IMG/VR virus record: IMGVR_UViG_3300042901_002277
Source of the DNA: a virus
Length of the DNA: 64,000 bases
Reading direction: 5' to 3' (one strand)
The notes below the pieces were generated by a model. The model saw nothing but the letters and a program-made list of their open reading frames with translations, was not told the origin of the DNA and did no database searches. The position numbers were made by a program, and so were the translations under genes. Numbering within the stretch: position 1 is the stretch's first letter; every line of letters starts with the position of its first letter. Shown piece by piece: positions 21,271 to 49,829 of this stretch.

Positions 21271-21484
21271 TTTTCCCTCCTTAAGGGTGTTTGTTTAGTT
21301 GTGTCTATCGTACATCACGGAATACCAAATTTCCAAAATCACTTGACACCGTGAGGCAGTAGTTACTCTACATCATGCGATACCAAATTTCCAAAATCGC
21401 TAGACACTCACATTACCTATAGAGCAATTTTTTGATTTTCTTGCAGGGGTGTAACAGAGTTTCCCCGGGGCTATGGCTCTCGAT

Positions 21485-21502
21485 TGTTAGGCTGACCTAA
21501 CA
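21485..21502. promoter_or_regulatory. IdeR/DtxR-like palindrome
   Basis: TGTTAGG-CTGA-CCTAACA; about 14/19 match to TTAGGTTAGGCTAACCTAA. Confidence 0.4.
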
Positions 21503-22018
21503 CCTGTTGCCGGGGCTTAAGAAAAATGAATGAACCGGGAGCTAGTTGCAACCACAGCAGGCTGAGCAAAAGACAACTTCGCCATGCTCGGTGCAGTCAG
21601 CGCGGCGCGACTCACAAATAATGCAATTTTCTGCAGACATGGCAGCCTGCGCACGACGCTCCGCCTTTTTCTCTCCACGGTTCTTGCCTATCTTGTAGAC
21701 AACATAGCCACCGAGCAAACCCATTAAAGGTCGCGCCTACTTTTGTATTTTCTTTCAGCACTGATGTCGTCCCACAATAGAAGGACTGCGCCAGCGACTG
21801 CGATGATACAGACACTCATGATGATGATGTAACCAGCCACCAGTATCCCCTGAAGCATTAGATACCCGACTTCCTATTAGCCTCGTCTTTTGGCTGTTTG
21901 CTTCTTTCTGCCCAACAATTCGGACAGAAGTATGCGTTATCTATTACATCAGTAAAGCCATCTGTCGTAGTGTCATCATTGCAATCAAAACACTCAATTC
22001 CTATTTGGTTGCTGACGG

Positions 22019-22522
22019 TCATTTCATTTCCCTATCAGCCTTGGCGTCTCGGACTTCCCATAGACCCTTCTTTATCTTTCTGAAGGTAGGAGACTCCTGA
22101 ACATACTTCAGGGTGGTCGGGTAGGAGAATCCACACTGCTCCATGAGTTGTTCCGTGGTGTACTGCTCAAAGTGGTGCTGGTTAGCCCATTTCAGGAAGG
22201 CGTCCCACTTGTCAGCACGCTTCTCTGTCTTGATTTCATCTACGACAGACTCCTCATCTACCTGAATACCGCAGTATTCGCTTGATACATCCGCGATTAC
22301 AGCGTCAGGGAGCGAGTAGGAGAGCATGGTACGGATAGGACTGCCCTTTGCTCCGTCACGATTCCACACTTGGAGAACATGTAACGCCCTTGTGTAGTCA
22401 CTGATACCTTGGGAGACTTCCCGTGGCACGGCGAACTTGTCCCCGAACTCGTCAATGGCTTCAGCCCAACGAGAGTTGTGGATATCGGTAATGAATGATT
22501 CGGTTATTGACTTTTTCAACAT
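22019..22522 (-). CDS. Hypothetical cassette protein (C-terminal wHTH-like)
   Basis: Own promoter at 22561 and SD GAAAGGAAG. Confidence 0.65.
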   Translation of the reverse strand: MLKKSITESFITDIHNSRWAEAIDEFGDKFAVPREVSQGISDYTRALHVLQVWNRDGAKGSPIRTMLSYSLPDAVIADVSSEYCGIQVDEESVVDEIKTEKRADKWDAFLKWANQHHFEQYTTEQLMEQCGFSYPTTLKYVQESPTFRKIKKGLWEVRDAKADREMK

Positions 22523-22741
22523 AGTAGATACTTCCTTTCATCACCTATCCTACAACAGGCGATACCAAATTTCCAAAATGAGGGTCTTCCCCCACCGTCA
22601 ATAAGGGATGGCCCCCCGGAGGTCGTCCAATTTTTTGATTTTTTTGAATATTTCAGCTGTTTTTTGAATACTCTATTTGAATACAACCAGGCCCTTCGGC
22701 CGAACAGTGCTACTACCCACTATCCGGCCCGAGCCCCGGTT

Positions 22742-23020
22742 TTACCCTTTTGTTTTTTCGAAAGATTTGTTCCAGGTGTGCGTGTAGTAGTAACTTGCGG
22801 TCGTCTTAAGCTTTCCCTCGATGTGAAATTTAACTCGAAGGTATTCAATAGCCGCCGCTACCTCTTCATCGGTGAAGTCATTATCTGTGTCGTTGCCCCA
22901 GTAACCATTTAAAAAATCGCTTTTTGCTGTATCAACAGCATCTTCACCGGTTGTGGACAGCGTGTAGTAATTCTCCTCAAGAATCTCTGCAATCTGCGCA
23001 AGGACATCCATGTCAATCAT
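22742..23020 (-). CDS. Hypothetical protein
   Basis: Coupled within the 24079-22742 operon. Confidence 0.55.
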   Translation of the reverse strand: MIDMDVLAQIAEILEENYYTLSTTGEDAVDTAKSDFLNGYWGNDTDNDFTDEEVAAAIEYLRVKFHIEGKLKTTASYYYTHTWNKSFEKTKG

Positions 23021-23430
23021 TGCTTCTCACTTTTCAACATCGTGTACAGGTCGTCTATGACGCCACCAATACTTTCCTCAACTTCAGTGTTGATGTTCTC
23101 TTCAATTGTTTCTTCTATCTTTGCTAATCCAGCAACAAAACCATCCCAAAGGTCATCAAGCATTTCGTGTTCTTCAGGGGTGAATTTCGGACCCATAGGG
23201 ATATTCCTTATCTCTACTTCTCCATCGCTCATGAGTTCCATGAGTTCATCTGGAGCAAGAGCCTGACGACGCCTTTCTGAAAAGATTCGTCCGTCTTTAT
23301 CAAAAAGTCCAGTACTCATTCTGCGATTAGCGTCCTTGAATACTGAGATTGCCTCGATGATGAGTGTTATCTCTTCAAGGGTGAATCTTTTTTTACTCAT
23401 TGAAGCGGTTACTCTTTTTTTCCTAGCCAT
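23017..23430 (-). CDS. Hypothetical protein
   Basis: Coupled within operon. Confidence 0.6.
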   Translation of the reverse strand: MARKKRVTASMSKKRFTLEEITLIIEAISVFKDANRRMSTGLFDKDGRIFSERRRQALAPDELMELMSDGEVEIRNIPMGPKFTPEEHEMLDDLWDGFVAGLAKIEETIEENINTEVEESIGGVIDDLYTMLKSEKQ

Positions 23431-23648
23431 TACAAGGTCCTTCCTGAGAACTCAAACCATTCATCATAGGTCATGCCAATAGTTCCGACAAACTCTGCAT
23501 TCTCATAGAAGTCCATGATAAAGCCCTCATGAGTGATTCCAATGTTGATGAACTTGGCGTTGACCTCGTCATAGCCACTCGTAAAAACGGTTACATCCTT
23601 GCGTGAATGCTGATTGACATCAAATGTCATCTTCTCATTGTCGCTCAC
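23430..23648 (-). CDS. Hypothetical protein
   Basis: Coupled within operon. Confidence 0.55.
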   Translation of the reverse strand: MSDNEKMTFDVNQHSRKDVTVFTSGYDEVNAKFINIGITHEGFIMDFYENAEFVGTIGMTYDEWFEFSGRTL

Positions 23649-24079
23649 TTGTCACCTGCCTCGTCCAGTCGTCGCTTGATGTTGACCATCTCAGCCAAGT
23701 ACTCATCAAATGACATTTGGAATGGGAACTCAATACCATCAACAATGTTTGAGAACAGGATGTTTCTGTTTTGCATTTGTTGCCAAAGGTCAAGGAATTT
23801 GTAGCCAGCACTCAGGTACTGGTCAAACGCTGTGAGCCACTCTTCAGCGATACCTACAGATACCCAAGAGTCCTCACCTTCTACCAAGGAGAGCGAACTG
23901 CCGTTATCCCAATCAACACCGATACACATAGCGCCAGCATTATCGTACGGCTCCCGTGTAACGGTCCCTAGGTCACCCTTGCGAATCCGTGTGTACGGGT
24001 CGTTAGTGCGGACCAATTTGATTCTTTCTCCGACAAGTGTCTTATTCATCATTCTCTCCTTAGTAGTAGTTGAGTACAT
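23645..24079 (-). CDS. DUF4314-like protein
   Basis: GERIKLV..NDPY..I..GDLGTV...IGVDWDNGSSLSLVEGED. Confidence 0.7.
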   Translation of the reverse strand: MYSTTTKERMMNKTLVGERIKLVRTNDPYTRIRKGDLGTVTREPYDNAGAMCIGVDWDNGSSLSLVEGEDSWVSVGIAEEWLTAFDQYLSAGYKFLDLWQQMQNRNILFSNIVDGIEFPFQMSFDEYLAEMVNIKRRLDEAGDK

Positions 24080-24110
24080 CCTAGTACGCCCGATACCAAA
24101 TTTCCAAAAT

Positions 24111-24329
24111 CTAGATTCCCTCTAGAACATCGGAAGGCTTCACCTTGAGTGCTCCGCAGAGCAGGATGAGTGACTGAAGGCTCGGTGAGAAGTGTCCGTT
24201 TTCAATCCGGTTGATGGTCTTGCGCTCGAGCCCCGCCTTCTTTGCCAACGCATCTTGCGAGAGTTCTCGCTCAATACGCAACTTACGAAGTCGTGCGCTA
24301 ACCCGTTGTTCTTTCTTTTGGGTATTCAT
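24111..24329 (-). CDS. XRE/Cro-family HTH regulator
   Basis: LRKLRIERELSQDALAKKAGLERKTINRIENGHFSPS. Confidence 0.9.
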   Translation of the reverse strand: MNTQKKEQRVSARLRKLRIERELSQDALAKKAGLERKTINRIENGHFSPSLQSLILLCGALKVKPSDVLEGI

Positions 24330-24359
24330 GTTTTCTCCTTGTTAGGTGTTTGGTTTATT

Positions 24360-25025
24360 TCAGTTTGCACTGAAAATCTGTTGTGCGGTCATGGCTGTAT
24401 CCATGCCTTCTGCAATCTCAAATGTGAGAGCGTCTTTCCATTCCGAATACTTTTCGTCAAAGTTCTCGTCGTCGTCGTCGTATTCAGGTTGCCCCTGCAT
24501 TTCGTGTTCACCTTCTGAAACAATCTCGCCTTTGTGAAAGACCATGTACCCAGCAAAGAAATCTGCTTCCTCTGTGAAGTGCATGCCAAACACAAGTTCA
24601 GGGAATTGTTCGGAGATGTTCTTCATAAGACCAACCGCAGGGCTCCAAGCACTTTCCCAATACAGCGTTATTGAGTTGCTGTTCTCGTCAAATGTGTCCT
24701 CGTCAAAATCAACACGGCAAGCACCCCATTTGGTGTCCCAGTTCGCATTCGCCCAGTCGTACCAGTCCTTGTGACCGTACTTAGCGAGATTTGACTCTTG
24801 TTGCTTGCGGTGTTCTTCTGCCTTCTCTTCACCAACATATCCTGAAACTGTTTCGTGCAGTTCTGTTGGAATTGGGAATAGTTGGTTCATGTCCCATTCT
24901 GTTCTGTTCCATTCAGGAATTGCTTTCCACTCTTCAGTTTGCTCAATGCGAATAGCCTCAATGAACCGCTTCAGTTCCTTGTTGCTTCCACGAACTTCTC
25001 CGTATTGGTTGCACCAGTTAGGCAT
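24360..25025 (-). CDS. DUF1281/YubB ferredoxin-like domain protein
   Basis: MPNWC, WYDWANANWDTKW, ESAWSP motifs. Confidence 0.75.
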   Translation of the reverse strand: MPNWCNQYGEVRGSNKELKRFIEAIRIEQTEEWKAIPEWNRTEWDMNQLFPIPTELHETVSGYVGEEKAEEHRKQQESNLAKYGHKDWYDWANANWDTKWGACRVDFDEDTFDENSNSITLYWESAWSPAVGLMKNISEQFPELVFGMHFTEEADFFAGYMVFHKGEIVSEGEHEMQGQPEYDDDDENFDEKYSEWKDALTFEIAEGMDTAMTAQQIFSAN

Positions 25026-25088
25026 TATTTTCTCCCTTTGTAGTAGTAGGTGATGTAACTATACAGGTACAGATACCAAATTTCCAAA

Positions 25089-25586
25089 TTAGTACCATGC
25101 GTCAGACCCGTTGCATTCATTGGCGACCCAGCGCAACCACCAAATGGCGTACTTGACTTCCTTGTCCAAGTTCTCCCCGTCTTTGGTTACGGTTCCCATT
25201 TCTGTCATACGGTTTTCCATGTCGTCTGCTAGAGCGAGGCAGGATGATGGTGACTTATATGTACCATCCTCGTTGTCGCCGTAGAACGAATACTCAAAGT
25301 CAGGCAGTTCCAGTGCTTCTATTAGATAGTTGCCGTACTTCCCTCTGTACCAGCAGTCCGTTCCGAATATGCCAGTAACGCTTCCGTCTTGCAAATCAGT
25401 CTTTGACAGGGAGATGAGGTAGGGGCATTTGCCTTCTGCCTGCGTTGCTCTGCAGTCAATTCGTTTTTCAGATAATCCTGTTTCTTCGTCAACAATGGCT
25501 ACGCCGTCTTTGTCAAGAATGTCAACTTTTACAGCAGTGCCAAGACGCTCGCAGGCGTATCGGTGTGGGATGTTGTCTAAGCCCAT
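25089..25586 (-). CDS. Hypothetical cassette protein
   Basis: MGLDN start; own promoter at 25629. Confidence 0.65.
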   Translation of the reverse strand: MGLDNIPHRYACERLGTAVKVDILDKDGVAIVDEETGLSEKRIDCRATQAEGKCPYLISLSKTDLQDGSVTGIFGTDCWYRGKYGNYLIEALELPDFEYSFYGDNEDGTYKSPSSCLALADDMENRMTEMGTVTKDGENLDKEVKYAIWWLRWVANECNGSDAWY

Positions 25587-25731
25587 GTGAACTCCTTAGT
25601 AGTAGGTGAGTACCACTATAGCGACCGAGATACCAAATTTCCAAACTCTTCCACCACCGTCATGATAATGGGTAATACTTGACTCAATCTGAATTATGTG
25701 GTACAGCAGACCGGTGGGTGGCCCGAACCGG

Positions 25732-25745
25732 CGAACACATGTTCG
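25732..25745. promoter_or_regulatory. LexA (SOS/Cheo) box
   Basis: CGAAC-ACAT-GTTCG, intergenic. Confidence 0.75.
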
Positions 25746-25797
25746 CTCAGCCCCGGTGCTCATTGTGGCGGCCCGGCCGCCGGGGCTCTATGGTCAA

Positions 25798-26121
25798 TTA
25801 TTCGTCGTGAGCAATTACCAGGTTGCCGCCAACGATTTGCCAGCCGTCGTCATGAGTGTTCCAAACAAACGATAAAGCTTCTTTTATTCCATCTAGGTAA
25901 TAGAACACATCATCATCTAGAACACCGAAGTCGTCCCACTGTAGATAGACAGGGTCTTTACTGAATGATAAGTAGTAATGCAACAATTCACCCTCATCAA
26001 CCCAGTACACCTGTGCGTCCATGCCAACCAGCACGCCCTCTTCAGCGATTACATATTTCAGGTAATCCTTCAACAATTTCAGAGTAATAAGCGTCTTTCT
26101 AATCGTTGCTCTAATCATCAC
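25798..26121 (-). CDS. Hypothetical protein
   Basis: Coupled ORF. Confidence 0.55.
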   Translation of the reverse strand: MMIRATIRKTLITLKLLKDYLKYVIAEEGVLVGMDAQVYWVDEGELLHYYLSFSKDPVYLQWDDFGVLDDDVFYYLDGIKEALSFVWNTHDDGWQIVGGNLVIAHDE

Positions 26122-26438
26122 GCGCTCACTACATCTATGAGTTGCACGAATGAATCCAGTGGCTCTGCTTCATCAGGATACGCCCTCATGGCGTCGTCTA
26201 GGAACATTTGGTAAGCACCCAAGTCGTCACCTCTGAAGTAGTGATTCGCTCCACCATCTCCATAGTTCTCTACACGGCATGCAATAATTCCTTTTCTTAG
26301 AATTTGTGCCATCCAAGTAATTCCTCTTGAAGTCTCCATCTCTTGGATTACCTTGAAGTCGTACAGGCTTGCGATGTCGTCCACCGCAGGCTCTGTCACA
26401 AATAATTTCAGTGAGGGTGGAAGTGTTGAGTAAAGCAT
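26118..26438 (-). CDS. Hypothetical protein
   Basis: VENYGDGGAN motif; CAACTACTAACAAGGAG leader. Confidence 0.6.
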   Translation of the reverse strand: MLYSTLPPSLKLFVTEPAVDDIASLYDFKVIQEMETSRGITWMAQILRKGIIACRVENYGDGGANHYFRGDDLGAYQMFLDDAMRAYPDEAEPLDSFVQLIDVVSA

Positions 26439-26475
26439 GATTTCTCCTTGTTAGTAGTTGTTTGAATTCTAGTCG

Positions 26476-26994
26476 TCAGCAGATTTGGAATCCACCGCAG
26501 TTCTCTAGGAACTCTGCGAACCGCTTGACATTCTCCACATCAAACGGATAAGCGGACAGCCACGATTCCCTAGTGCCAATTCCATCACAGGCATTGCACC
26601 AGCCATGAGTGCGACCAGTAAGAATCTGCGCCTCGGGTGAGAGTTCTTTAGTAGGCATTCCCATTTCCACGCCGACCTCATCATTGCGAATGCCAGTGCA
26701 CTCACAGAGGTTGCATGCTTCACGGGGAAGCGAGGAACGCCATTCGTTGTAGGTCTGTGCGTACTTTTCTACCGTGCCATTTTCAAGGTCTATCTTGAGT
26801 GACCAAGCCAATGATTCAGCCAGTGCGTCGTCTAGCCCGTCACCGTCGTTTGAGTGCCACGATTCGCAACCGCTAGCAATGTCGTCATAGTTGGTGCAGA
26901 TAAAGTCTGCCAGTGGACGCCACCACCACACATTGTTGCGGAAGTATTCGCCCTTTTCATTCTTTGGCTTTACGCCATAGACATCCATACCCAT
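26476..26994 (-). CDS. Conserved phage-type protein with inserted CxxCxxxG Zn ribbon
   Basis: MGMDVYG..YFRNNVWWW, CNLCECTG..CNACDGIG, FLENCGGF. Confidence 0.7.
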   Translation of the reverse strand: MGMDVYGVKPKNEKGEYFRNNVWWWRPLADFICTNYDDIASGCESWHSNDGDGLDDALAESLAWSLKIDLENGTVEKYAQTYNEWRSSLPREACNLCECTGIRNDEVGVEMGMPTKELSPEAQILTGRTHGWCNACDGIGTRESWLSAYPFDVENVKRFAEFLENCGGFQIC

Positions 26995-27087
26995 TTTCTT
27001 GCTCCTTGTTAGTAGTAGTTAGGTGACTGAATCTTACAATACTGAATACCAAATTTCCAAAATCGAGAAGAGCCCCGCGCTCTCCCT

Positions 27088-27555
27088 TTACGCCTCAACC
27101 TTGTCAAACGGGCACTCGGCTACTTGACCGAATACAGCCTCGTACAGGTCACGCCCGTCTTGCCATTCACTCCAGTCTCCATCTGACGAGATACGGACAC
27201 AAGAGCCGTAGATTTCTTTCGCCCGAATGAGTATCGCAGTAACTACAGCGTCATACGGTTTCTGTGCAGTCTTGCAAAAATCAAAGATTTCAGGCTCATC
27301 TTTACGCCATTCAACTTGAGTTGGCAGTGCCTTCCAAGTAAAGGTTTCGTGAGACATATCATCTATGCCGTTGAAACTGAACTCTCCCTCTGTGAACTGT
27401 GGTTGAGTTTCGTTCTCTCCACTCCAGTCGCCAAGTTTTATGCCAATGCTCTGTGCGTGTTCGCAAATAGCCTTAGCGTCTAGTGCGAGTTTGCCGTACA
27501 TATAGGCAGACCCAGCGTTCTTTCGTGGTCGGTAGTTGTAATGCGTGTAACCCAT
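27088..27555 (-). CDS. Hypothetical phage protein
   Basis: MGYTHY..FCKTAQKPYD..ISSDG; degenerate promoter at 27600. Confidence 0.7.
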   Translation of the reverse strand: MGYTHYNYRPRKNAGSAYMYGKLALDAKAICEHAQSIGIKLGDWSGENETQPQFTEGEFSFNGIDDMSHETFTWKALPTQVEWRKDEPEIFDFCKTAQKPYDAVVTAILIRAKEIYGSCVRISSDGDWSEWQDGRDLYEAVFGQVAECPFDKVEA

Positions 27556-27603
27556 AGTTAGTGCCTTTCGTTAGTAGGTAGTAGTACCTTAGCAGACCCA
27601 ATA

Positions 27604-27807
27604 TCAGATTTCCAATTTTTTCTGTTCGTAGACCATGAACTCACCATCACTGTCACGGCTGATTCCAGTCACCCACATAGAGCGACCAATCTGCCCGTAG
27701 TCCTCTATTGCGTTCTGAACTTCCTCTACGGCAACGCCACAGCACTCGCTGTCGTTTTCAGCTTGCACATCAAGCGTCACCATTACTGTTACTCGGTAGG
27801 TGTTCAT
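27604..27807 (-). CDS. Hypothetical protein
   Basis: Coupled ORF. Confidence 0.55.
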   Translation of the reverse strand: MNTYRVTVMVTLDVQAENDSECCGVAVEEVQNAIEDYGQIGRSMWVTGISRDSDGEFMVYEQKKLEI

Positions 27808-28094
27808 TAGTAGTTACTCCAATCGTAGTTGTCGTTTTTGTGTGCGATTTCCTCGGAACATACTCCGATTACTTTTAGCGTTTCGCCGTCAATGACACGG
27901 CTACATTTCTCACAAAGATAGGTATCGCCGTCCCATTCTCCGTTGAGTGTTGGCGAGACAATCTCTCCAGTCTTTAGGCAAGAGTAAAAGCCCTCGTAGT
28001 TTGGTTGGTTGCCACATAGACACTGAAACCAATCAGTAGTTCCACCTATGTACTCCTCGTACAGTCGGTTATTCATACTCAACCTCTGTTCCAT
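27807..28094 (-). CDS. Cys-rich hypothetical protein
   Basis: CLCGN..CEKC. Confidence 0.55.
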   Translation of the reverse strand: MEQRLSMNNRLYEEYIGGTTDWFQCLCGNQPNYEGFYSCLKTGEIVSPTLNGEWDGDTYLCEKCSRVIDGETLKVIGVCSEEIAHKNDNYDWSNY

Positions 28095-28314
28095 AGTCGT
28101 GTATGCATTCGCTGTCGTACTCCTCTGCGTGGTCTTCCATTGTGCGGAAGTGGCAATTCTCGTTTATCCACTCATAGCGAGCGTCAGCGTCCCACTCATT
28201 CCACTCAAACGGAAGTTCCATTCCTTGTGGCATGTCGTAGTACTTGTAACGGGTGTACTTGACAAGCATGTGCTCATCAACGGTAACGGCAAAGCGTGTA
28301 GGTGTAGTAGTCAT
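28069..28314 (-). CDS. Hypothetical protein, leaderless
   Basis: ATG 6 nt after TACTAT of the 28335 promoter. Confidence 0.6.
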   Translation of the reverse strand: MTTTPTRFAVTVDEHMLVKYTRYKYYDMPQGMELPFEWNEWDADARYEWINENCHFRTMEDHAEEYDSECIHDYGTEVEYE

Positions 28315-28651
28315 GAGTACATAGTAGTACGCTGGATACCAAATTTCCAAAGTGCTTTCCGCCACCGTCAAGATAATAGAGGCTTATGGATATCTGTTGG
28401 CGATTTTTTTGCTCGCTCCGATTATTGCAAATATTTTTATTTTCTTGCAACTTTCTGGGAATTTTCTGGCTAGCCCCGCACGGCGTTCTGGCCGCACCGA
28501 GGCCGGGGCTCTTGGGGAAAATAGCTACCTTGTTATTTAGGTATCCATCAGATAACCGCTATTACCACAACCTGGGCAGTGTTCGGTATCTAATCTAATT
28601 TCTAATTGCTCTTCAGTGCTTACTGTTTCGCACCAATTACAGATAATCGTT

Positions 28652-28885
28652 TCAGGCGTTTTCATTAGTTGCCCACCGATTTTCGCTGTCATAGAAGCAA
28701 GTGTTACATACGAAGCCGTCTAGGTCGTTATCCCAGACTGGCTCACTCCCAAAGGTGCGTACGGTCATCTCCATTCCGCATGAGTCGCAATTAGCCCTAT
28801 CGCCACGAATATGAATTACGCCGTGTACGAGTGGCAGTGAGTTGATTTTTTCGATATATGCCTCGCTCATGTCGGTCACTCCCAA
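28652..28885 (-). CDS. Small Zn-ribbon protein
   Basis: CDSC..CNTC. Confidence 0.5.
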   Translation of the reverse strand: MGVTDMSEAYIEKINSLPLVHGVIHIRGDRANCDSCGMEMTVRTFGSEPVWDNDLDGFVCNTCFYDSENRWATNENA

Positions 28886-29145
28886 GCCCTATTGAGCAGT
28901 ATCCCTGCGAATGGGTTGGGGTACTTCACCTCGTCATTTAGCCAACGCTCACTATCGGAGTGTTGAGTTTCGCAGTCTCGGAATGTCTCAGTGGCGAACG
29001 CCTTGTCATCTTTCATGAGGCGCACCAGCAATTTACCAGTGCCGTCTTCCCAGACATCTAGTTGGTAGGTAGCGTCAATGCCACCGAACGGACCAGCTTG
29101 CTCACCGAATACGGATAATTTATGAGTCATCGTTACAGTGCTCAT
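28876..29145 (-). CDS. Hypothetical protein
   Basis: Coupled ORF. Confidence 0.55.
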   Translation of the reverse strand: MSTVTMTHKLSVFGEQAGPFGGIDATYQLDVWEDGTGKLLVRLMKDDKAFATETFRDCETQHSDSERWLNDEVKYPNPFAGILLNRAWE

Positions 29146-41974: not shown

Positions 41975-42292
41975 GTGACATCAGTAGCAGTGAGAGTAAG
42001 CGCACCACCGAGAGGCGATTTGCCTTGTACTGGCAGGCAAGATTTGTTTTATGGCAAGTACGCCGAAAGACCTGAAGCACGATTGCGCCGTGAAGAAAAA
42101 GCCAAAAAAGTTTGCGCTACTTGTTCGCAGGCGACTACCTGCCGTGATTACGCCCGTAGTAATGGCGAAGTGTTTGGTATTTGGGGCGGAGAAACAGAAA
42201 TGGAGAGATATAGCGCAGGATTTATGTTGTCAGTACCACCCCACCTGTCACGGAGAGTTGTTACTATGAAAGAAAGATATGGGAACTTATAA
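41975..42292 (+). CDS. whiB: WhiB-family transcription factor
   Basis: C..CATC..C and GIWGG. Confidence 0.9.
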   Translation: MTSVAVRVSAPPRGDLPCTGRQDLFYGKYAERPEARLRREEKAKKVCATCSQATTCRDYARSNGEVFGIWGGETEMERYSAGFMLSVPPHLSRRVVTMKERYGNL

Positions 42293-42503
42293 CGATTTCC
42301 TCGCCACGATTTCTATTTACTACGAGACACAACTTGTAGCAGGTGGCGATTTGCGCTATGGACAAATGTATATGAGCCATCTTTGGGAAGTAAAGCCCCG
42401 CATAGCAGAGAAGCTAAGCAACTCTTTACTTGACCCATTTCATAGAGACAACTGCCCACCTAAAGTACACGAGTTTGTGGAAAGTCTTTGGTCTAGCGAA
42501 TAG
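42279..42503 (+). CDS. Hypothetical protein
   Basis: LRYGQ...DPF motif. Confidence 0.6.
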   Translation: MGTYNDFLATISIYYETQLVAGGDLRYGQMYMSHLWEVKPRIAEKLSNSLLDPFHRDNCPPKVHEFVESLWSSE

Positions 42504-42642
42504 GACAGCAAGACGAGCGACGAGGTTTCTGAATAACCCGTGAAGGCTTTGGTTCAGCCTCTTTTTTCTTCTTTTTTTCGTCATCAGCCATACAACAAGA
42601 ATACACCTTGTGTTTGGAGCTGAGCCCCGCTAACATTTCGGT

Positions 42643-42840
42643 ATGAGTATGCCCCCACTTTATACCTGCATCGTTTGCAACGGCGCAATTGACCCGAACT
42701 CGTCGCAGTCCTTGAGACTGGCAACGGTGTGGCTAAAGAGCAGTGGGAAGACAGTCCACGCAGTAGAGACAGAGATGTATCGCTATAGGCACGGCTTTTG
42801 TAGTCTCGGACCCAACTTTGAGCAGGACAGTTTGTTCTAG
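42643..42840 (+). CDS. Small Cys/His protein
   Basis: CIVC..HGFC. Confidence 0.45.
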   Translation: MSMPPLYTCIVCNGAIDPNSSQSLRLATVWLKSSGKTVHAVETEMYRYRHGFCSLGPNFEQDSLF

Positions 42841-43058
42841 CCAAGCCTCATTGCGCCAATTGTTTGGTTAGTTTCACCAAGTGTCTTGCCAGCCGTATTG
42901 TTTGTGACGGCAACCCGAGCGTCAAGGTTATTGAGTATGACCTGAACTTGGTCAAGTTTCCGATTTATTTCCTCAACCGAGTTCATTACCGACTTCATTG
43001 CTTGTTCTAAAGATGCTTCTATTTCCATATCGCCTAGCCTAGCAAGTATGATGAGCAA

Positions 43059-44981
43059 GTGCGACTTTACCTTGACCACGACTTATTAGCCCTTGACTTT
43101 CCGTATGACCCAGCACAAGTTGCTGAAGTCAAGTCAATAGCCGGGGCTACATGGGACAAGGTGGACAAACTTTGGAAAGCACCCGTAGCCTCAATTGACG
43201 AGGTGCGAGCATTTGCTATGAAGCATGAGTTTCAGATAACAGACGAAGTGCTTAGGTTTACAGCCCCAAAGAGAGCGTCACGAAAAGGCGTTTATCTCAA
43301 AGGCGACTGGACTTACATCCAATTCCCTTACGACAAGGTTGTGCTCAAAGCAGTAAAGCAAATAGCAGGGGTTACTTGGGATAACAAAGAGATGGCATGG
43401 AGAGCGCCACTCACCTCAACATCTGAAGCAATTGCGTGGGCTAACTCGTTTGGGGTGCTTGTATCGCCCGAAGTACACGGTGTATCTGCCTCGATAACCA
43501 AGAAACTAGATGAACTAAAGGAAGCCTCACGCTCAACTGACGCTGATATAGAAGTGCCTTCACTACAAGGAACGTTATTGCCTTACCAAAGAGCAGGCGT
43601 GGAGTATGCGTCTAAAGCCCGTAGAAGTTTTATCGCTGACGAGATGGGACTTGGAAAGACGATACAAGCGATAGCGACACTGGAATATTCGTCAAAAGAT
43701 AGCGAAGTGTACCCAGCAGTAATTGTCTGCCCCCCTTCACTTGTACTCAACTGGAAGTCAGAGTGGAACAGATGGTTGCCTAACAGGAGGGTTGCCGTTG
43801 TGACCAACCGTAGAGACATGCCAGAGCCCCGTTCGTATGATGTGCTCGTTGTCGGCTACTCAAACATCTCTCACTGGGAAAAGCAACTACTTGCGCATAA
43901 CTCTTATGTATTTGATGAGAGTCACTACGCAAAAAGCCCAACGGCACAACGTACTAAGTCGGCTATAAAGATGGCAAAGAGCGCACCTAAACACGGGATA
44001 GTCCTATGCCTCACTGGGACACCCGTAACGAATAGACCAGCAGAGTACGCCAGCCAACTAGACATAATCGGGAAACTGAAAGAGTTTGGTGGGTTGTGGG
44101 GATTTTATAGAAGGTATTGTTCAGCCTTCCAAGATAGGTTCGGTCAATGGAATATCAGCGGTCACTCGCACCTTGATGAACTAAACGACAGGCTTCGTGG
44201 TACTTGCTATATAAGACGAACTAAGTCGCAGGTACTTACAGAACTCCCACCGGTTATACACAGCACCCTTGTTGTTCAGGGAACTGATGCGGGGCTCAAG
44301 GAGTATCGTAAGGCAGAACAAGACATAATAAAGTACATAACCGACAGAGCAAAAGAGATAGCAATAGAACTCGGGGAGAGCCCGTACTCGGCAGCCGTTG
44401 TGGCGAGAATAAAAGCAGAAAGCAACGAACACCTCGTCAAACTGTCAGTACTTAGACGGCTTGCTGCGAAAGCCAAAATGCCAATGGTTGAGGAGTGGGT
44501 GCAGTCACGCATTGATGATGGCAAGAAAGTCGTAATCGCAGCGCACCATAGAGACGTTGTAGATGAACTCGCACGAAAGTTTGGCAACCTTCGCATTCAG
44601 GGCGGCATGTCGGTTGAGGAAGTGGAAGCACAAAAGGCACGCTTTCAGAACGAACCCGTAGAGACAGCGCCCGTCATTGTGTTGTCTATTCAGGCAGCCA
44701 AGACTGGTCACACACTCACAGCCTCACAAGACATACTTTTCGTAGAACTTCCGTACACGCCAGCAGACCTAGACCAAACTTATTCACGCCTTCATCGCAT
44801 TGGTCAGACTGGAAGCGTTACGACTACTTACATGCTGGTTGACGGGACTATTGACGAGGAAATCTATGCGCTCATAGAAAAGAAGCGCAAGGTAGTGAAC
44901 GCTTCGGTTGAGGGGGGAGAGTTCGCAGCAGGTGGTAACGCAACGCAGTTGGTACTTGACTTGCTCAACAGACATCGATAG
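43059..44981 (+). CDS. SNF2-family ATPase with two tandem HARP-like domains (SMARCAL1-like annealing helicase)
   Basis: ADEMGLGKT, DESH, LTGTP, SRLHRIGQ; duplicated FPYD..V..VK.IAG.TWD....W.AP N-terminal repeats. Confidence 0.9.
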   Translation: MRLYLDHDLLALDFPYDPAQVAEVKSIAGATWDKVDKLWKAPVASIDEVRAFAMKHEFQITDEVLRFTAPKRASRKGVYLKGDWTYIQFPYDKVVLKAVKQIAGVTWDNKEMAWRAPLTSTSEAIAWANSFGVLVSPEVHGVSASITKKLDELKEASRSTDADIEVPSLQGTLLPYQRAGVEYASKARRSFIADEMGLGKTIQAIATLEYSSKDSEVYPAVIVCPPSLVLNWKSEWNRWLPNRRVAVVTNRRDMPEPRSYDVLVVGYSNISHWEKQLLAHNSYVFDESHYAKSPTAQRTKSAIKMAKSAPKHGIVLCLTGTPVTNRPAEYASQLDIIGKLKEFGGLWGFYRRYCSAFQDRFGQWNISGHSHLDELNDRLRGTCYIRRTKSQVLTELPPVIHSTLVVQGTDAGLKEYRKAEQDIIKYITDRAKEIAIELGESPYSAAVVARIKAESNEHLVKLSVLRRLAAKAKMPMVEEWVQSRIDDGKKVVIAAHHRDVVDELARKFGNLRIQGGMSVEEVEAQKARFQNEPVETAPVIVLSIQAAKTGHTLTASQDILFVELPYTPADLDQTYSRLHRIGQTGSVTTTYMLVDGTIDEEIYALIEKKRKVVNASVEGGEFAAGGNATQLVLDLLNRHR

Positions 44982-45032
44982 CCCCGGCCTATCGTTTTAG
45001 AAATTTGGTATTTGGCTTGCTAAGCTTGCGTT

Positions 45033-45265: not shown

Positions 45266-45688
45266 TTACTCGGCTTCTTTGGTTGGGACTCTGCCCATCA
45301 GTTCGTCAGCAATTAGTTTTGCGTACTTTCTGCGCAGTTTCCAGACTTTTTGGTTCATTTCAGCCATTGCGTCAGTCGTTCGTGCCTTCTTTATGCTGTC
45401 GCTGTCAAACACGCCGTACTTCTTGAACAAGATGTCGTCAATGTCATTGTTTTCTATCATTATGTCCGTAATCCAATGGCCCCGCTTGTCAATGCTAAGC
45501 AGAAGTTCGCAAAGACCTTCAAATCCGAACTCGTTATAGACACGATTGGTAACTAAGTCACAGAAATGCGCACGATACATCGTTTCTGCTTCAGCGGTGT
45601 GGCTCATAAACTCACTCAGCCATACGGCAAGCTCTTCTTTTGACGGAATATCGCCGTCTTCACTGTCAAACTCAAAGTCGTCTTCCAT
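45266..45688 (-). CDS. Hypothetical acidic protein
   Basis: 140-aa ORF with SD. Confidence 0.6.
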   Translation of the reverse strand: MEDDFEFDSEDGDIPSKEELAVWLSEFMSHTAEAETMYRAHFCDLVTNRVYNEFGFEGLCELLLSIDKRGHWITDIMIENNDIDDILFKKYGVFDSDSIKKARTTDAMAEMNQKVWKLRRKYAKLIADELMGRVPTKEAE

Positions 45689-45744
45689 TAGCCTGCCTTC
45701 CGTTACGCCGGGGCTCTAGTAATCAATGATACTTGTGCTAACTG

Positions 45745-46770
45745 TCAAGCCAGCGACAGAATAACTTCCTGCGCTAATACTTTCTTTTGCGTAACCCACG
45801 AGTTGTTGTTCATTGAGGCAAGCGCCCGTTCATCAGCCTTAGCGTCACGATAATGGTCTAGGTACTCGGCGATTGCGTTGTAAGCACTCCACCCGTTGTA
45901 CCCGTAGCCACCTGCATTTCGTTCGTTGTCGTACACTCCACGAACCAATGCCACTACTCCGTCACGATTTTTCTTTTGTCTCTCCGTACCGTTCATTTCG
46001 TTCGGGAATACCTTGTCAAGTATCGTGGCGAGTTGCGCACTTCGCGGTGGAACGTTGATAGCAAGCAACCGGTTGGCTGTAAGTTGGAACGACTTAGCCC
46101 ACTCTGTTGATATTTCTAGGACTTTTTGCGCTTCCTCAATGGCGTTATCAGCGTTACGAGTGTGTCGTGCCGTGAATACCCTACGGGCAGACGATTGACC
46201 TGCGATTACCGTGTTTTTGCATACTGCTCGTATCGAGGTATTAGCAAAGGTGATAGCCGTCTTACCGTCGTGACCATTGCGAACCAGTAGGTAACGGTCT
46301 ATCTTGTCATTGATACCGGTTGGGTCTATGACGAGTTGCCCCAAGTCAAGGGAACTAAAGAACTCTCTGCCTTCGTCAAGTACGCCACAAGTGTCTACAA
46401 CTGCGTCACCCTTAGAAGCGCCGACTATTGCAAGTGCGTAGTCCAAGCACTCACGGTTTTGCTGTACGACATAGCGTGTGCCTACCGTAGCCAGCCCGTC
46501 AAAGGTGCCATCAGGGTTCACTCTCACGGTTGCTCGGCTGTCCTCAATAACGATTGGCGTGCCATCAGGGTTTCTGATTAGGTTGCCATCAGTATCAACG
46601 ACTGCGACTTTAGTAGTGACGACATCAAAGTCTGCTTGCGCCGCCTGAAGCATTGCCTCTGCTGTCTGTAGTCCCTTCATAGGAACTCCTAGACGATGCC
46701 ACGGCACTTCACGGTCTGCGTAAGCCATTTTCGCTACGCCCTTAGTGTCTACCTCTAACCCGTGTGCCAT
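45745..46770 (-). CDS. DUF932-family phage/plasmid protein
   Basis: MAH..PWHRLG..Y.VQQN..NGHDG..IRAVCKNT..RHT..WSAYNAIAEYLDH. Confidence 0.85.
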   Translation of the reverse strand: MAHGLEVDTKGVAKMAYADREVPWHRLGVPMKGLQTAEAMLQAAQADFDVVTTKVAVVDTDGNLIRNPDGTPIVIEDSRATVRVNPDGTFDGLATVGTRYVVQQNRECLDYALAIVGASKGDAVVDTCGVLDEGREFFSSLDLGQLVIDPTGINDKIDRYLLVRNGHDGKTAITFANTSIRAVCKNTVIAGQSSARRVFTARHTRNADNAIEEAQKVLEISTEWAKSFQLTANRLLAINVPPRSAQLATILDKVFPNEMNGTERQKKNRDGVVALVRGVYDNERNAGGYGYNGWSAYNAIAEYLDHYRDAKADERALASMNNNSWVTQKKVLAQEVILSLA

Positions 46771-46870
46771 TTTCGTCTTGCCTTCCTATGCCTCTAGTTA
46801 GATTTATCTAAAGGCAAGCATACACTCTGCCCTCTTACCGCTAGAGCAAGTGGCTATAAGCCCCGGCTTT

Positions 46871-47149
46871 TCACTTCGCTTTGTCGTCTACGAATTCGGT
46901 ATAAGCCTTCACCGCTTCATCGGGTGCGCCGTCTACTAGGTACTGATACATAACGCCTGCGAGGTCACGCCACTTACCGTCACTAAGTATCTTTTCAGTA
47001 ATTGTGTAGCCTTCGTGTTCGGTTGCCCAACTAATTGAGTGGGGCTGTAACTTGTGTAGGTGCGCTACTGCTTCGTAGTAAGTGCTGAAACTCTCAAGCA
47101 CTGCGCCGTCTCTCGCTACTTCGTAACTAATCTGCGCTTCTGTGTTCAC
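46871..47149 (-). CDS. Hypothetical protein
   Basis: Coupled ORF. Confidence 0.55.
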   Translation of the reverse strand: MNTEAQISYEVARDGAVLESFSTYYEAVAHLHKLQPHSISWATEHEGYTITEKILSDGKWRDLAGVMYQYLVDGAPDEAVKAYTEFVDDKAK

Positions 47150-47418
47150 TTGTCAAACCTCACTTCTTGGGATACTTGGATAACTTGTCCGTACTTGGCT
47201 ACTAGGTCATCAGTCGCTTTCAGTGTGTTGCCGTGACACCACTTGACTGCTAAGCCACTTAGGGTATCGCCTTCCTGAACGATTACTCGGTCAATATCAC
47301 AACGATAATTTTCATCACCTCGCATTGAGATAATCATTGCGATAATCGTCACGAGGAATACGAGTGGGAGTGTAATCAGGTCACGCTTGCTTGGTCGGTT
47401 TGTGTAGTGGTTGTTCAT
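47146..47418 (-). CDS. Membrane-anchored LysM protein (paralog of 40350..40682)
   Basis: TM followed by VIVQEGDTLSGLA..C.GNT; sigmaA-type promoter TTGACC-N17-TAATGT upstream. Confidence 0.7.
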   Translation of the reverse strand: MNNHYTNRPSKRDLITLPLVFLVTIIAMIISMRGDENYRCDIDRVIVQEGDTLSGLAVKWCHGNTLKATDDLVAKYGQVIQVSQEVRFDK

Positions 47419-47629
47419 TGTCTGCCCCTTTCAGTAGGTACTAATTACATTAGGGTAGTTTGTGACAAAGGTCAAGGATTTCCGAGCCTTATGGGCATTG
47501 GGTTATACCCGTAGGGCTACCCGTAGGCACTGCGCCAACCTCATAAGCATTTGTAGGTGGCAAGGTGAGTGTGCTACCACCACCTATGCCGGGGCTTCGA
47601 GCTGTGTTGTTCTCGGCTTTGGGGTTAGG

Positions 47630-48418
47630 TTACTTCTTGACGGTGCGCTTCTTTGGTGGCGACTTCTTTTTGACTGACTTCTTTGGCGCTACCTTCACTG
47701 GCGCTAGCGATATGGATACGCCTGCGCTCGCTACTACTGGGATAGTGGTTGTGGTAGTGGTCGCTGGCTCGGTTGCTACTGGCTCACTCTCTACTACTGG
47801 CTCGCTCGCTGTCACTGGCTCGGCTGTCTCGGATATGGGTGCTGTCGTAGTGGTGGTAGTAGGGCTAGTCGTAGTCGTAGTGGTTGTCGTAGTCACTGGG
47901 ATAGTCGTAGTCGTAGTAGTTGTGGTCGTTGTAGGCGTAGTTGTAGTTGTGGTCGTAGGTATCACTCTGTTTACTGTTCCGTCACAGGCGATAGCACAGT
48001 CTCCATTAGTGACTACTGGGTTACTACTTGCGCCAATCAACTGATACACAGCACTACGGGCGAGGGCGATATCTATTCCGTCACGCCATAGGGCAAGCAT
48101 AAAGTTGGGGCGATAGCCGTTGCCACCTGAACCACTGCCAATTCCAACGCCGACATACTCACACACTGCGAACCATTGGTGCGCTTTCGCTATGGCGATA
48201 CCTAGCGAACGGTGACCACCATTGGAATAGGTGACTAGACGCTCAAACGCTTCAGTGCCTACTTCGGTGTCAATAATTGTTAGTAGTGTCGGTTGTTGTG
48301 ACGAGGGTGCTTCTATCGGTTCAGTACACTCGCTTGCCTTCGCTTCGGTGATAGTGACAAGGGGTAGCGATAGCGATAGGGCTAGGGCTAATGCTGTAAG
48401 TGTTCGTGTTCGCTTCAT
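47630..48418 (-). CDS. Secreted Thr-rich protein with Lys-rich tail
   Basis: Signal peptide, poly-Thr tracts, KKSVKKKSPPKKR. Confidence 0.7.
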   Translation of the reverse strand: MKRTRTLTALALALSLSLPLVTITEAKASECTEPIEAPSSQQPTLLTIIDTEVGTEAFERLVTYSNGGHRSLGIAIAKAHQWFAVCEYVGVGIGSGSGGNGYRPNFMLALWRDGIDIALARSAVYQLIGASSNPVVTNGDCAIACDGTVNRVIPTTTTTTTPTTTTTTTTTTIPVTTTTTTTTTSPTTTTTTAPISETAEPVTASEPVVESEPVATEPATTTTTTIPVVASAGVSISLAPVKVAPKKSVKKKSPPKKRTVKK

Positions 48419-48475
48419 AGTAACTCTCTCTCGGTACGGGCTACCCGTAAGGCTACCCGTGGCATTGGAATTTTT

Positions 48476-48832
48476 TCACTTTTTTTCGCTTATCCACTCA
48501 CCACCACTAGCGAACACTGTCTCTCCCTCATTGGTGAAACTCCAAGCGTAATCGCAACAAGGCTTCTGCTGATAGGGGCTAGGGTGTGCGCCTTTCTCTA
48601 ATGACTTCGCTAGTAGTGGAAATGTCTCTAGTAACTTGACGATACAAGCGTGGCACATATTCCACGATTTAGGTTCACTATCAGACATTAGAAACTCAAG
48701 GTTGTCGGTGAAACCACCATAGAAACCAAACGCTTCATAGGGCAAGCACCAACCACTGTCTAGTGTTGTTGCTGTCGGGTGACTTGTCTTGCTCACTTCG
48801 CCACAAGCGTCACACTTCACTGCGTTGCTCAT
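48476..48832 (-). CDS. Cys-rich hypothetical protein
   Basis: CDACG..CHAC. Confidence 0.6.
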   Translation of the reverse strand: MSNAVKCDACGEVSKTSHPTATTLDSGWCLPYEAFGFYGGFTDNLEFLMSDSEPKSWNMCHACIVKLLETFPLLAKSLEKGAHPSPYQQKPCCDYAWSFTNEGETVFASGGEWISEKK

Positions 48833-49122
48833 AGTGCGTACTCTCCACGCTTACGGCGATAGTGCGATACGAATTCGTCACTGTCATAGTCACAAGGTGA
48901 CCACACTATGTCGGCTTCACTAAAGGTATGGTCAAGGTGCAGACGGACTATCACATAGTCAAAGGCGTCGTATGCGTTGTCAGCGATGAACCTGATGCAA
49001 CCTACGAGGGTAGAGCGATACTCAAAGTGTTCAGGTAAGTCATAGCGACACATACTCCAAGCGTCACCATACGAGGGACACTCAACCACTGCGTACCTGC
49101 GTCGGTCTTTCTCGATAGTCAT
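48829..49122 (-). CDS. Hypothetical protein, leaderless
   Basis: ATG 6 nt after TACACT of the 49143 promoter. Confidence 0.6.
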   Translation of the reverse strand: MTIEKDRRRYAVVECPSYGDAWSMCRYDLPEHFEYRSTLVGCIRFIADNAYDAFDYVIVRLHLDHTFSEADIVWSPCDYDSDEFVSHYRRKRGEYAL

Positions 49123-49446
49123 AGGGCAAGTGTACCTAGTGTGATACCAAATTTCCAAAGACGGACTACCCGTATGTCACCCGTGCGCCTTGCGTCAGTC
49201 ATACTCTCTCAACTTCAGTGCGACATAGATGAGGGCGACACCTGCTAGGCACATCAACTCAAGCGCTGCCTCACCGCTCATCGTCACTTCCTAGCGTGAA
49301 CTTAGGCATAACGAATAGCGTGTTGCCCATGCGGTAGGCGTTACGGCTTGCGTTGTACTGTGCGTCAGGGAATAGACGAACTAAGTCGATGGCTGTCAGT
49401 GGCGTGTCGCTTAGGTGAACGACATGACGTAGGTGCTTCACTGCGA

Positions 49447-49641
49447 CTACCTCAACCAAGTTGGGTCGAGCTTTTTTGTGACCTCTAACGAATACATTGC
49501 TTCACGCTCTGACACGACTACTTCGTGAGAGTGCTTTGCTTTGTCACGAATGTTCTGTGCGACTTCATTCGCTTTCTGCTCTGTCTCGTAGAACCCTGCG
49601 ACGTCGTTTCTGTTAGGTCGAAGAATGGTTACTTGATACAT
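49447..49641 (-). CDS. Small hypothetical protein
   Basis: SD GAAAGGGG; promoter at 49683. Confidence 0.55.
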   Translation of the reverse strand: MYQVTILRPNRNDVAGFYETEQKANEVAQNIRDKAKHSHEVVVSEREAMYSLEVTKKLDPTWLR

Positions 49642-49829
49642 CGTTATCCCCTTTCATGAGATACGGTAAGCCTACTACATCGGATACCAGATTTCCAAAG
49701 CGCGTAACGCGTTGCGAATATGGTACGAAGTCGACTTCCAGAGTGTCATGCGGGGCTCTTTCCGGCACTACACCACACCGGTGGGCAGTCGTATTCCAAA
49801 TTTTTAAGCTCGCCGTATTTCAACTAGAT

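Follow-up and report, generated by a model that had tools for sequence, protein, structure and literature searches.

A 28-kb array of promoter cassettes with a lineage-specific promoter box in the genome of a probable uncultured actinophage

Repeats which combine a stem-loop, a promoter and a Shine-Dalgarno (SD) sequence, the promoter-early stem-loops (PeSLs), are known from the hyperplastic regions of T4-type phages, where they mediate the insertion, deletion, replacement and displacement of open reading frames (ORFs) and where phage pairs have somewhat different versions of the motif (Arbiol et al. 2010, PMC2839356; Comeau et al. 2014, PMC4122927). Mot-box stem-loops (PmSLs) are mentioned in the latter work as well (PMC4122927). 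Among the actinophages, those of Cluster O carry 17-bp dyad repeats with 7-bp inverted repeats, and one gene insertion flanked by the repeat was reported (PMC4351075). The start-associated sequences (SAS) of Cluster K phages are accompanied by extended ones (ESAS), which are inverted repeats with a variable spacer near gene starts and have subcluster-specific concerted positions (PMC3203893). Here we describe a 28-kb array of promoter cassettes in the IMG/VR virus record IMGVR_UViG_3300042901_002277. With a probability of about 0.7 we regard it as an accessory-gene region of about 30 autonomous promoter cassettes, which are shuffled and homogenised via a short promoter box that is read by a lineage-specific factor. 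The analysed stretch of 64,000 nucleotides (the window) corresponds to bases 64,562-128,561 of this 160,449-bp genome (G000 in the following), taken from the reverse strand, and a genome position is obtained as 128,561 - window position + 1; positions are those of the window unless indicated otherwise.

The promoters of the array follow the pattern TTGGAAATTTGGTATC-N8-TAnnnT. Allowing up to one mismatch, TTGGAAATTTGGTATC is found 28 times in forward and once in reverse orientation in the 160,449-bp genome, and a control pattern is not found at all. With up to three mismatches and a required -10 element there are 31 forward boxes at 21321-49698 and two reverse ones at 41240 and 44997, and a search of the whole 160-kb genome revealed no box with a -10 outside the 28-kb array. 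The hexamer TAnnnT follows 8 nt after the box in all 31 copies and is kept in all box types of the family. The T, the A and the final T are shared by 100% of the orthologous promoter pairs (25 and 19 pairs for the two near relatives) and the bases between them vary, as is typical of a sigma-70-family -10 element. With this hexamer placed at -12 to -7, the box would span approximately -36 to -21 and thus the -35 hexamer and most of the spacer. An ATG stands 6-7 nt past the -10 in about half of the boxes of the relatives L077 and L070 and in two cassettes of G000. Leaderless mRNAs of Actinobacteria have this geometry, which supports the assignment of the -10 as well as an actinobacterial host. 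Other cassettes have a standard leader: the word CAACTACTA occurs 11 times in the window (0.39 expected), CTACTA is present in 13 of the 31 leaders, the SD word GAAAGGGG occurs 17 times (2.0 expected) and an SD-like motif is found in 25 of the 31 leaders. At the other end of the units lie inverted repeats of the form AGCCCCG..CGGGGCT (brackets), 12 of which are exact with loops of up to 30 nt (0.00 expected). Altogether there are 16 brackets, all of them at 25749-38816; the loop measures 17-45 nt in 15 of them and 72 nt in the remaining one. A GC-rich hairpin with a T-rich tail precedes 11 of the 16 within 75 nt. The original prediction, made from the letters of the window, had counted about 30 promoters and 16 complete brackets in self-contained units of promoter, leader, ORFs and terminator; both counts agree with ours, and the words and brackets of this anatomy are far above chance.

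Some smaller observations concern the box. Behind the reverse box at 44997-45012 comes a stretch of about 220 nt that contains no ORF (45033-45255, plus strand). A 14-mer, TGACGGTGGYGGAA, lies 4-10 nt upstream of several boxes (28351-28375, 31494-31520, 25645-25670, 22577-22600). The same 14-mer is among the commonest words in distant relatives with other boxes (L056, L061, L062, L076, L081), and it is therefore predicted to be a second, family-wide regulatory site.

Like a PeSL, the unit described here has a stem-loop upstream of a sigma-70-family promoter with an SD sequence, the bracket being located 9-168 nt ahead of the box. All copies are confined to one region of small ORFs, which are mostly without function by annotation, and the differences in gene content between relatives are bounded by the repeat as far as the box edge is concerned, the bracket arms giving no significant result. 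The analogy to PeSLs drawn in the original prediction is apt, and the testable defining features were found apart from the membership in the T4-type phage group. G000 is actinophage-like, whereas the PeSL phages are T4-type and have hosts of another phylum. Unlike in PeSLs, the family has a 16-18-nt box over the -35 and the spacer, which switches in concert between near relatives and exists in at least 11 types, and the bracket consists of fixed 7-8-nt arms around a free centre of 17-72 nt, lacks a U tail and follows a separate terminator. With the repeats of Cluster O and Cluster K the array shares tens of short conserved motif copies in the non-structural half of an actinophage genome. There is, however, no sequence similarity to them, the main repeat in G000 is the promoter itself at a fixed -10 distance, the spacers of the inverted repeats are far longer, and the role in cassette exchange is better documented.

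The genome of G000 has direct terminal repeats (DTR) and is rated complete. It contains three WhiB-family genes (41975-42292, plus; 13042-13233, plus; 61322-61534, minus), the first of which sits inside the opposite-strand block of the array. WhiB proteins are a family of Actinobacteria and their phages. The nearest cultured relatives according to the primase-helicase are Arthrobacter, Microbacterium, Gordonia and Streptomyces phages (30-35% identity). An actinobacterial host is indicated because of the three WhiB genes and because these nearest cultured phages infect Actinobacteria. The profile PF00589 finds no tyrosine recombinase or integrase in the 160-kb genome and is positive in 14 of 14 control genomes. 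We conclude that G000 is an uncultured actinophage, which is probably lytic. A megablast search of the array against 50,697 deposited phage genomes gave zero matches, and the 512-aa protein encoded just downstream of the array, used as a query, retrieves 34 viral contigs. Three independent genomes with comparable arrays are available, namely G000, G001 (172.5 kb, complete; G002 and G003 are the same phage) and G5, which consists of two abutting contigs (G011 and G005) of one metagenome. G000 and G001 are colinear over most of their length with about 80-93% nucleotide identity, and the majority of their core proteins is 90-100% identical. G006 (148 kb, complete) is a distant relative. Extra contigs found via the family 2 protein carry this gene in other contexts, and no repeated box and no homology to the hyperplastic part of the array were found in them.

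The box is specific for the lineage. G001 contains zero copies of the G000 box and about 31 copies of TTGTAAATCTGATATC at the corresponding places; the box of G5 is TTGGAAATTTGGTATT. Across 25 orthologous promoter pairs of G000 and G001, only 4%, 16% and 4% of the pairs agree at box positions 4, 9 and 12, respectively, and the identity is 92-100% at the remaining 13. Upstream of the box, the adjoining 25 nt show 54% identity between these two genomes and 54-61% across the ortholog comparisons. Between G000 and G5 (19 pairs) the last box position alone differs. One promoter (25072-25087) has the same 10 nt before and the same 24 nt after the box in G000, G001 and G5, with a different box in each of them. 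Copies within one genome must exchange sequence, because ninety parallel substitutions cannot be independent. That the flanks stay orthologous is explained by the paralogous promoters sharing only the box and little more, which confines the heteroduplex or conversion tracts. The box is also under sequence-specific constraint, as 13 positions are unchanged while the neighbouring neutral DNA is 46% diverged. In distant relatives the architecture is the same and the boxes are unrelated, their distance from the -10 being unchanged. At least 11 box types were found in the family, including TTTTGAGATAGGTCGGGG, TTTGTCGGTCAAGGGTGGGT, ACTTGTTGGGTTGGGTAAGC, ACTTGTTAGTCGTCCGTAACG, TTGTAAGCCGTCCGTAGG and CAGAATATTCTGTCTGTCG. 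In G006, 33+1 copies of its own box form one block of 26.5 kb, and this box is composed of two invariant half-blocks around four free positions. Box type and similarity of the neighbouring core gene do not go together: the G5 type occurs in L057 (88%), and L056 (93%) has the type of L058.

This pattern can be read in two ways. Either a reader, most likely a phage protein, changes its specificity, or tolerated positions of the box drift and are homogenised. The latter can be taken further. A dedicated reader would then be dispensable, the box being an ordinary sigma-A -35 (TTGnnn) with its spacer, and gene conversion alone (molecular drive) would account for the uniformity within and the differences between genomes. 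We consider this possible, although not probable. The -35 position reads TTGGAA at 18-nt spacing and TTG starts most box types, recombination among boxes is independently indicated by the breakpoint and mosaic tests described below, conversion tracts would naturally be limited to the 16-35 nt which are common to the copies, and the search for a reader turned up none. However, to judge from the conservation of 13 of the 16 positions, compared with 54% identity in the neighbouring neutral DNA, the box changes more slowly than expected from neutral drift, the lineage L078 has CAGAAT instead of a TTG, and the half-blocks of G006 with their four free positions resemble a contacted site. The lineage-specific promoter code is the most interesting and at the same time the least explained part of the array.

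Sites of comparable kind are known from the stoperators of Cluster A mycobacteriophages and the C1 operators of P1, asymmetric multi-copy sites with a co-evolving repressor. The likeness includes the asymmetric site of 13-17 bp, the 20-35 copies in one orientation to transcription, the overlap with promoters and the lineage variants. In contrast to these systems, five reader candidates of G000 failed covariation with the box type, an integrase is absent, and every copy stands at a fixed promoter position and not within operons. The middle promoters of T4, with a MotA box and a sigma-70 -10 read by sigma appropriation, similarly join a host-type -10 to a phage-specific upstream box which replaces the normal -35; the box of G000 is longer and lineage-variable, and no MotA or AsiA homolog was found, no search having been aimed at one.

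Sub-threshold sigma-region-4-like helix-turn-helix (HTH) motifs occur at three places in the phage. The protein with an HA domain and such an HTH (17498-17866, plus) was rejected as reader, its recognition helix being invariant across box types, and so was a 214-aa HTH protein (58687-59331), which is 100% identical in G000 and G001 despite their differing boxes. Among the WhiB proteins, the C-terminal region of W1 is conserved throughout the lineages recovered, and W2 and W3 share 95-96% identity between G000 and G001. The family 40 protein (23017-23430) was excluded by L057, which has a G5-type box together with a very different family 40 protein, and the XRE-type HTH protein failed covariation with the box type. 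None of the genes within 16 kb around the 512-aa gene groups by box type. An RNA guide was rejected as well, the ORF-free RNA at 45033-45255 having no complementarity to the box. The same applies to a site for a host regulator: in 185,579 prokaryote species genomes the G000 box gave 7 scattered single matches, approximately the chance level, and none in Actinobacteria. About 130 nt past the gene of the HA-domain protein, outside the array and on the opposite strand, lies a box-like sequence without -10 (18012-18027, plus), which shifts with the lineage as the real boxes do (G000 CTGGAAATCTGATATC, G001 TTGTAAATTTGATATC, G5 GTGAAAATTTGGTATT). It could represent a solitary site to which the reader of the box binds. 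The 3563-aa head polyprotein contains, between two [L/F]SSG motifs, a 141-aa module (genome positions 38938-39360 of G000, outside the window; L096:18938-19360) with tandem sigma-region-4-like HTHs (sub-threshold Pfam matches), and both recognition helices differ between G000 and G001. This tandem module was not found in the five more distant relatives G006-G010.

That a phage-encoded polymerase or sigma factor transcribes the array, which would then be a block of middle genes with the box as promoter element of that enzyme, is unlikely. The box is indeed private to the phage and lineage-specific, the sub-threshold HTHs mentioned above are of the sigma region 4 kind, and a putative RNA polymerase of the YonO-like kind, with HTH ends, has been described in some actinophages (bioRxiv 10.1101/842583). 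But neither a Sigma70_r2 match nor an RdRP/YonO-like match at E<=10 was found in the genome, and the strict TAnnnT together with an ATG 6-7 nt further on is the signature of a host sigma-A promoter.

The exchange of cassettes was followed by comparison of the three arrays. In G000 and its two relatives of about 80-90% nucleotide identity, G001 and G5, the part at 21.3-32.2 kb is colinear according to a cassette-by-cassette comparison and gene-family maps, and the following part of about 9 kb (32.2-41.2 kb) is hyperplastic, with some cassettes present in only one or two of the three genomes. Cassettes 6, 7 and 8 have another order in G5, and one gene pair is arranged as A-B, B-A or A1-B-A2 across the three genomes. 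An ORF of 152 aa (40688..41146, minus), found in G000 only, has been inserted after a leader, and its flanks carry a 33-nt repeat which corresponds to the first 11 codons of the following gene. We counted 101 unique ends of homology blocks within -150..+100 of a box start. No fewer than 27 of them fall at -7..+1 of the box start (3.6 expected, P about 2e-16). For the bracket arms (12, 8.9 expected) and the leader (15, 16.5 expected) the numbers are not significant, even if a few homology blocks begin or end exactly at a bracket arm. Restricted to the 52 ends without colinear continuation within 400 nt, the count is 9 at -8..+2 of the box (2.1 expected, P 2e-4), all nine being block starts, and the block ends accumulate 20-50 nt upstream of the next box (14, 6.2 expected). 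The translocated cassettes 6 and 8 start 1-2 nt before the box and moved without their brackets. At position 61819 of G001 the sequence is orthologous to G000 as far as the box and unrelated beyond it, and a chimeric box, TTGGAAATCTGATATC, is located there. Of the boundary motifs which the original prediction had proposed as recombination points, the box is supported by the excess of block starts at its 5' edge, and the bracket arms are not significantly enriched at breakpoints.

A mosaic test was done on a three-genome alignment of 11.7 colinear kb with 2,183 informative sites. These sites alternate among the three possible groupings at a sub-kilobase scale, and therefore these phages recombine often. 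After removal of the box sites 6 of the 33 change-points lie at boxes (2.1 expected, P about 0.02), and with a margin of 30 nt 9 of the 33 (3.2 expected, P 0.003). The boxes are preferred crossover points by about threefold, and most crossovers take place elsewhere. The association of breakpoints with boxes could be an artefact of illegitimate recombination, followed by selection against gene disruption, and of alignments which stop where the upstream DNA is unalignable. In line with this the upstream flank is only 54-61% identical in orthologs, arms and leader show no enrichment, and the insertion of the 152-aa ORF is bounded by repeated first codons instead of boxes. An artefact is nevertheless improbable, as the enrichment holds when only ends without colinear continuation are counted and also in the alignment-independent mosaic test with the box sites removed. 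Moreover, two translocated cassettes begin directly before the box, chimeric boxes exist, and the concerted change of the box itself needs exchange among boxes.

The brackets behave differently from the box. Their arms are the same in G001 (13 copies) and G5, and they persist even in relatives with unrelated boxes, in which the neighbouring 512-aa protein has dropped to 56-59% identity. In these relatives the position of the bracket is retained, past the terminator and about 25 nt before the box. At orthologous sites the centre keeps its length and has an identity of 64-67%, approximately that of neutral DNA, and no structure above that of shuffled sequence was detected in it (z-scores -2.0 to +1.0). 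Because the arms are conserved while the centre drifts like neutral DNA and has no structure, the arms are recognised by their sequence. Hypermutation of the loops was ruled out by the same identity of orthologous loops, which is near that of the neighbouring neutral DNA. The Rfam search gave no match to a known RNA family at E<0.05. The bracket would lie in the gap with the least transcription, and its spacing varies too much to fit a rigid dimer. We favour a boundary element which insulates the units, either as a hairpin or as a protein site, and a protein-binding or hairpin insulator is more likely than a recombination site. An integron-like platform with a dedicated recombinase, in which the bracket is an attC-like folded site, is very improbable: the conserved inverted 7-mers around a variable centre, kept in the 56-59% relatives, and the few blocks ending exactly at an arm would fit, but there is no tyrosine recombinase (PF00589), every cassette has its own promoter, the arms comprise only 7-8 bp around an unstructured centre and are without significant breakpoint excess, and translocated cassettes leave their brackets behind.

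Solo arms adjoin some boxes. A palindrome, GAACATATGTTC, or a near copy of it, directly follows some brackets (approximately 31590-31601, 25730-25741 and 38757-38770) and occurs in G001 and G5 too. It resembles an operator to which a dimeric HTH protein, such as the XRE protein encoded at 24111-24329, would bind. The terminator before one bracket (29562-29593) has the arms AGCCCTG/CAGGGCT, which are the bracket arms with one compensated change, and then a T-rich tail. Brackets and terminators may share an origin.

In the preferred explanation, that of shuffled and homogenised cassettes with a specifically read box, each unit starts with a sigma-A-type -10 (TAnnnT) and an invariant 16-18-nt box, fixed 8 nt ahead of it over the -35 and the spacer. 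It continues with a short standard leader (ACTACTA, then GAAAGG as SD) or none, one to four small ORFs and a predicted intrinsic terminator, and is usually closed by a bracket, in which a free spacer separates two conserved inverted arms of 7-8 nt. Short homologies for recombination would be provided by the repeated boxes and, less so, by the leaders and first codons, which between cassettes and between co-infecting relatives would shuffle the cargo, and homology-limited gene conversion would keep the about 30 boxes of one genome alike. The host RNA polymerase would read the -10, a lineage-varying agent, most likely a phage-encoded factor, would read the box sequence-specifically, and the bracket would act as a conserved boundary element. 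The array may be expressed early, and the host-takeover role which the original prediction proposed for it would be conjectural.

Several points weigh against this explanation. Promoter activity, timing and terminators are predictions from the sequence. The box is not simply a -35 element, because L078 has no TTG at this position. No reader of the box was identified, every DNA-binding candidate tested having failed covariation. Variable gene content in relatives had been set beforehand as a test of the original prediction, and it was found as gain, loss, replacement and permutation in about 9 kb, but about two thirds of the array is colinear among G000, G001 and G5. In the colinear part more than 70% of the mosaic boundaries lie inside genes, and with the most conservative segmentation the excess at boxes loses significance (P 0.07-0.08). 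Poorly alignable upstream DNA (54-61%) alone tends to make alignments stop at the box edge, a bias which is reduced and not removed by the strict test. Comparable arrays are carried by only three independent genomes, and the breakpoints counted pairwise are not independent.

The coordinates of the array and its elements are given in Table 1.

Table 1. Blocks, promoter boxes, brackets and paralogous genes of the cassette array in window coordinates. G000, G001 and G5 are the three genomes compared.
Feature	Position	Strand	Remarks
Whole cassette array	21321..49698	-	G000 genome positions 78864-107241; 31 forward boxes, 16 brackets, about 60 small ORFs
Distal part	21321..32168	-	cassette-for-cassette colinear in G000, G001 and G5; fine-scale phylogenetic mosaic
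Hyperplastic part	32169..41202	-	gain, loss, replacement, permutation; alignable 52% (G001), 36% (G5 fragment)
Embedded opposite-strand block between two reverse boxes	41240..45012	+	SNF2 helicase 43059-44981, WhiB 41975-42292
Long conserved unit behind box 49143-49158, forward genes	45266..49158	-	includes DUF932 (45745-46770)
Reverse box TTGGAAATCTGGTATC	41240..41255	+	
Reverse box TTAGAAATTTGGTATT	44997..45012	+	
Box	49683..49698	-	1 mismatch, -10 TAGGCT
Box	49143..49158	-	exact, -10 TACACT, ATG 6 nt past -10 (leaderless-type)
Box	41187..41202	-	3 mismatches, -10 TATGAT
Box	40310..40325	-	1 mismatch
Box	39187..39202	-	exact
Box	38726..38741	-	exact
Box	38191..38206	-	1 mismatch, ATG 7 nt past -10 (leaderless-type)
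Box	37859..37874	-	2 mismatches
Box	37232..37247	-	exact
Box	36406..36421	-	exact
Box	35796..35811	-	exact
Box	35241..35256	-	exact; content breakpoint vs G001 inside or just after
Box	34443..34458	-	exact
Box	33973..33988	-	exact
Box	33359..33374	-	1 mismatch
Box	33017..33032	-	exact
Box	32423..32438	-	exact
Box	32153..32168	-	1 mismatch
Box	31478..31493	-	position 9 is C, as in the G5 ortholog
Box	30848..30863	-	exact, -10 TATAGT at 30834-30839
Box	30125..30140	-	exact
Box	29479..29494	-	last base T
Box	28335..28350	-	exact
Chimeric box TTGGAAATCTGATATT	27600..27615	-	5' half own type, 3' half G001 type
Box	27045..27060	-	last base T
Box	25629..25644	-	exact
Box	25072..25087	-	exact; G001 and G5 orthologs with identical flanks, own box each
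Box	24092..24107	-	exact
Box	22561..22576	-	exact
Box	21379..21394	-	exact, first of tandem pair
Box	21321..21336	-	last base T, predicted to drive the AAA_5 and 512-aa genes
Bracket	38784..38816		19-nt loop
Bracket	38259..38298		26-nt loop
Bracket	37914..37953		26-nt loop
Bracket	37416..37456		27-nt loop; G001 homology begins exactly at upstream arm
Bracket	36432..36517		72-nt loop
Bracket	35853..35895		29-nt loop
Bracket	35268..35311		30-nt loop
Bracket	34008..34050		29-nt loop
Bracket	33043..33094		38-nt loop
Bracket	32448..32501		40-nt loop
Bracket	31607..31637		17-nt loop
Bracket	30884..30922		25-nt loop
Bracket	30162..30220		45-nt loop
Bracket	29505..29543		25-nt loop; orthologous loops in G001 and G5 also 25 nt, barely alignable
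Bracket	28472..28510		25-nt loop
Bracket	25749..25787		25-nt loop
Paralog A, family 16	29145..29435	-	
Paralog B, family 16	34108..34389	-	cassette absent from G001

Of 65 ORFs scanned, the majority could not be assigned a function by Pfam or PHROG. The identifiable cargo comprises an XRE-type HTH protein, WhiB, replication-initiator-like proteins, DUF932, DUF3846 and DUF4314/4315. Of the two paralog pairs reported in the original prediction, the one at 29145 and 34108 is well supported (51% identity over 84 aa, E 7e-31), whereas the two LysM genes have only sub-threshold Pfam matches (E 0.006 and 0.009). The HARP/SNF2 helicase and the DUF932 protein, which had been named as candidate helpers nearby, do contain the SNF2 and DUF932 domains, but a HARP domain was not detected in the SNF2 protein at E<=1, and nothing links either of the two proteins to cassette exchange. 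The 137-aa protein of family 40 (23017-23430, minus) is fast-evolving, being 67% identical to its G001 ortholog compared with 97-100% for the neighbours, and 49-55% identical in L056, L057 and L058. A 110-aa cargo protein (40350-40682, minus) has homologs of 60-88% identity on many other viral contigs. In the 10 kb downstream of the gene, these contigs lack a repeated box, have one bracket at most and do not resemble the G000 array, and the gene therefore travels between phage contexts. Adjoining the tRNA-Met gene (52411-52484) is an ORF of 254 aa with an endonuclease VII domain (52475-53239, minus), which belongs to a block of five ORFs (51643-54140) without counterpart in G001. A mobile nuclease may have inserted here, just upstream of the array.

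The array extends the known PeSL-type shuffling to an unrelated phage group, and the concerted switching of the box is the new point. Modular shuffling of this type, documented in T4-type phages of Gram-negative hosts and cyanobacteria, is now found in an uncultured family of Actinobacteria phages. The family also offers a natural experiment, in which phages of about 87% DNA identity have three bases of a 16-nt box replaced in all of the about 30 orthologous promoters. Such a concerted replacement is direct evidence of exchange among dispersed promoter copies, and it raises the question what reads the box over -35 and spacer and why the box diversifies. For Actinobacteria, the standardised promoter-leader modules could be used as orthogonal parts for gene expression. 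Tentatively, and with considerable doubt, we suggest that each lineage may possess a private promoter code, in which the box at about 30 promoters co-evolves with a phage factor, perhaps one delivered with the virion such as the HTH module of the head polyprotein. If this were true, co-infecting and recombining relatives could neither use nor be controlled through the accessory-gene promoters of each other, and the box types would act like specificity or immunity groups which are reassorted relative to the core genome.

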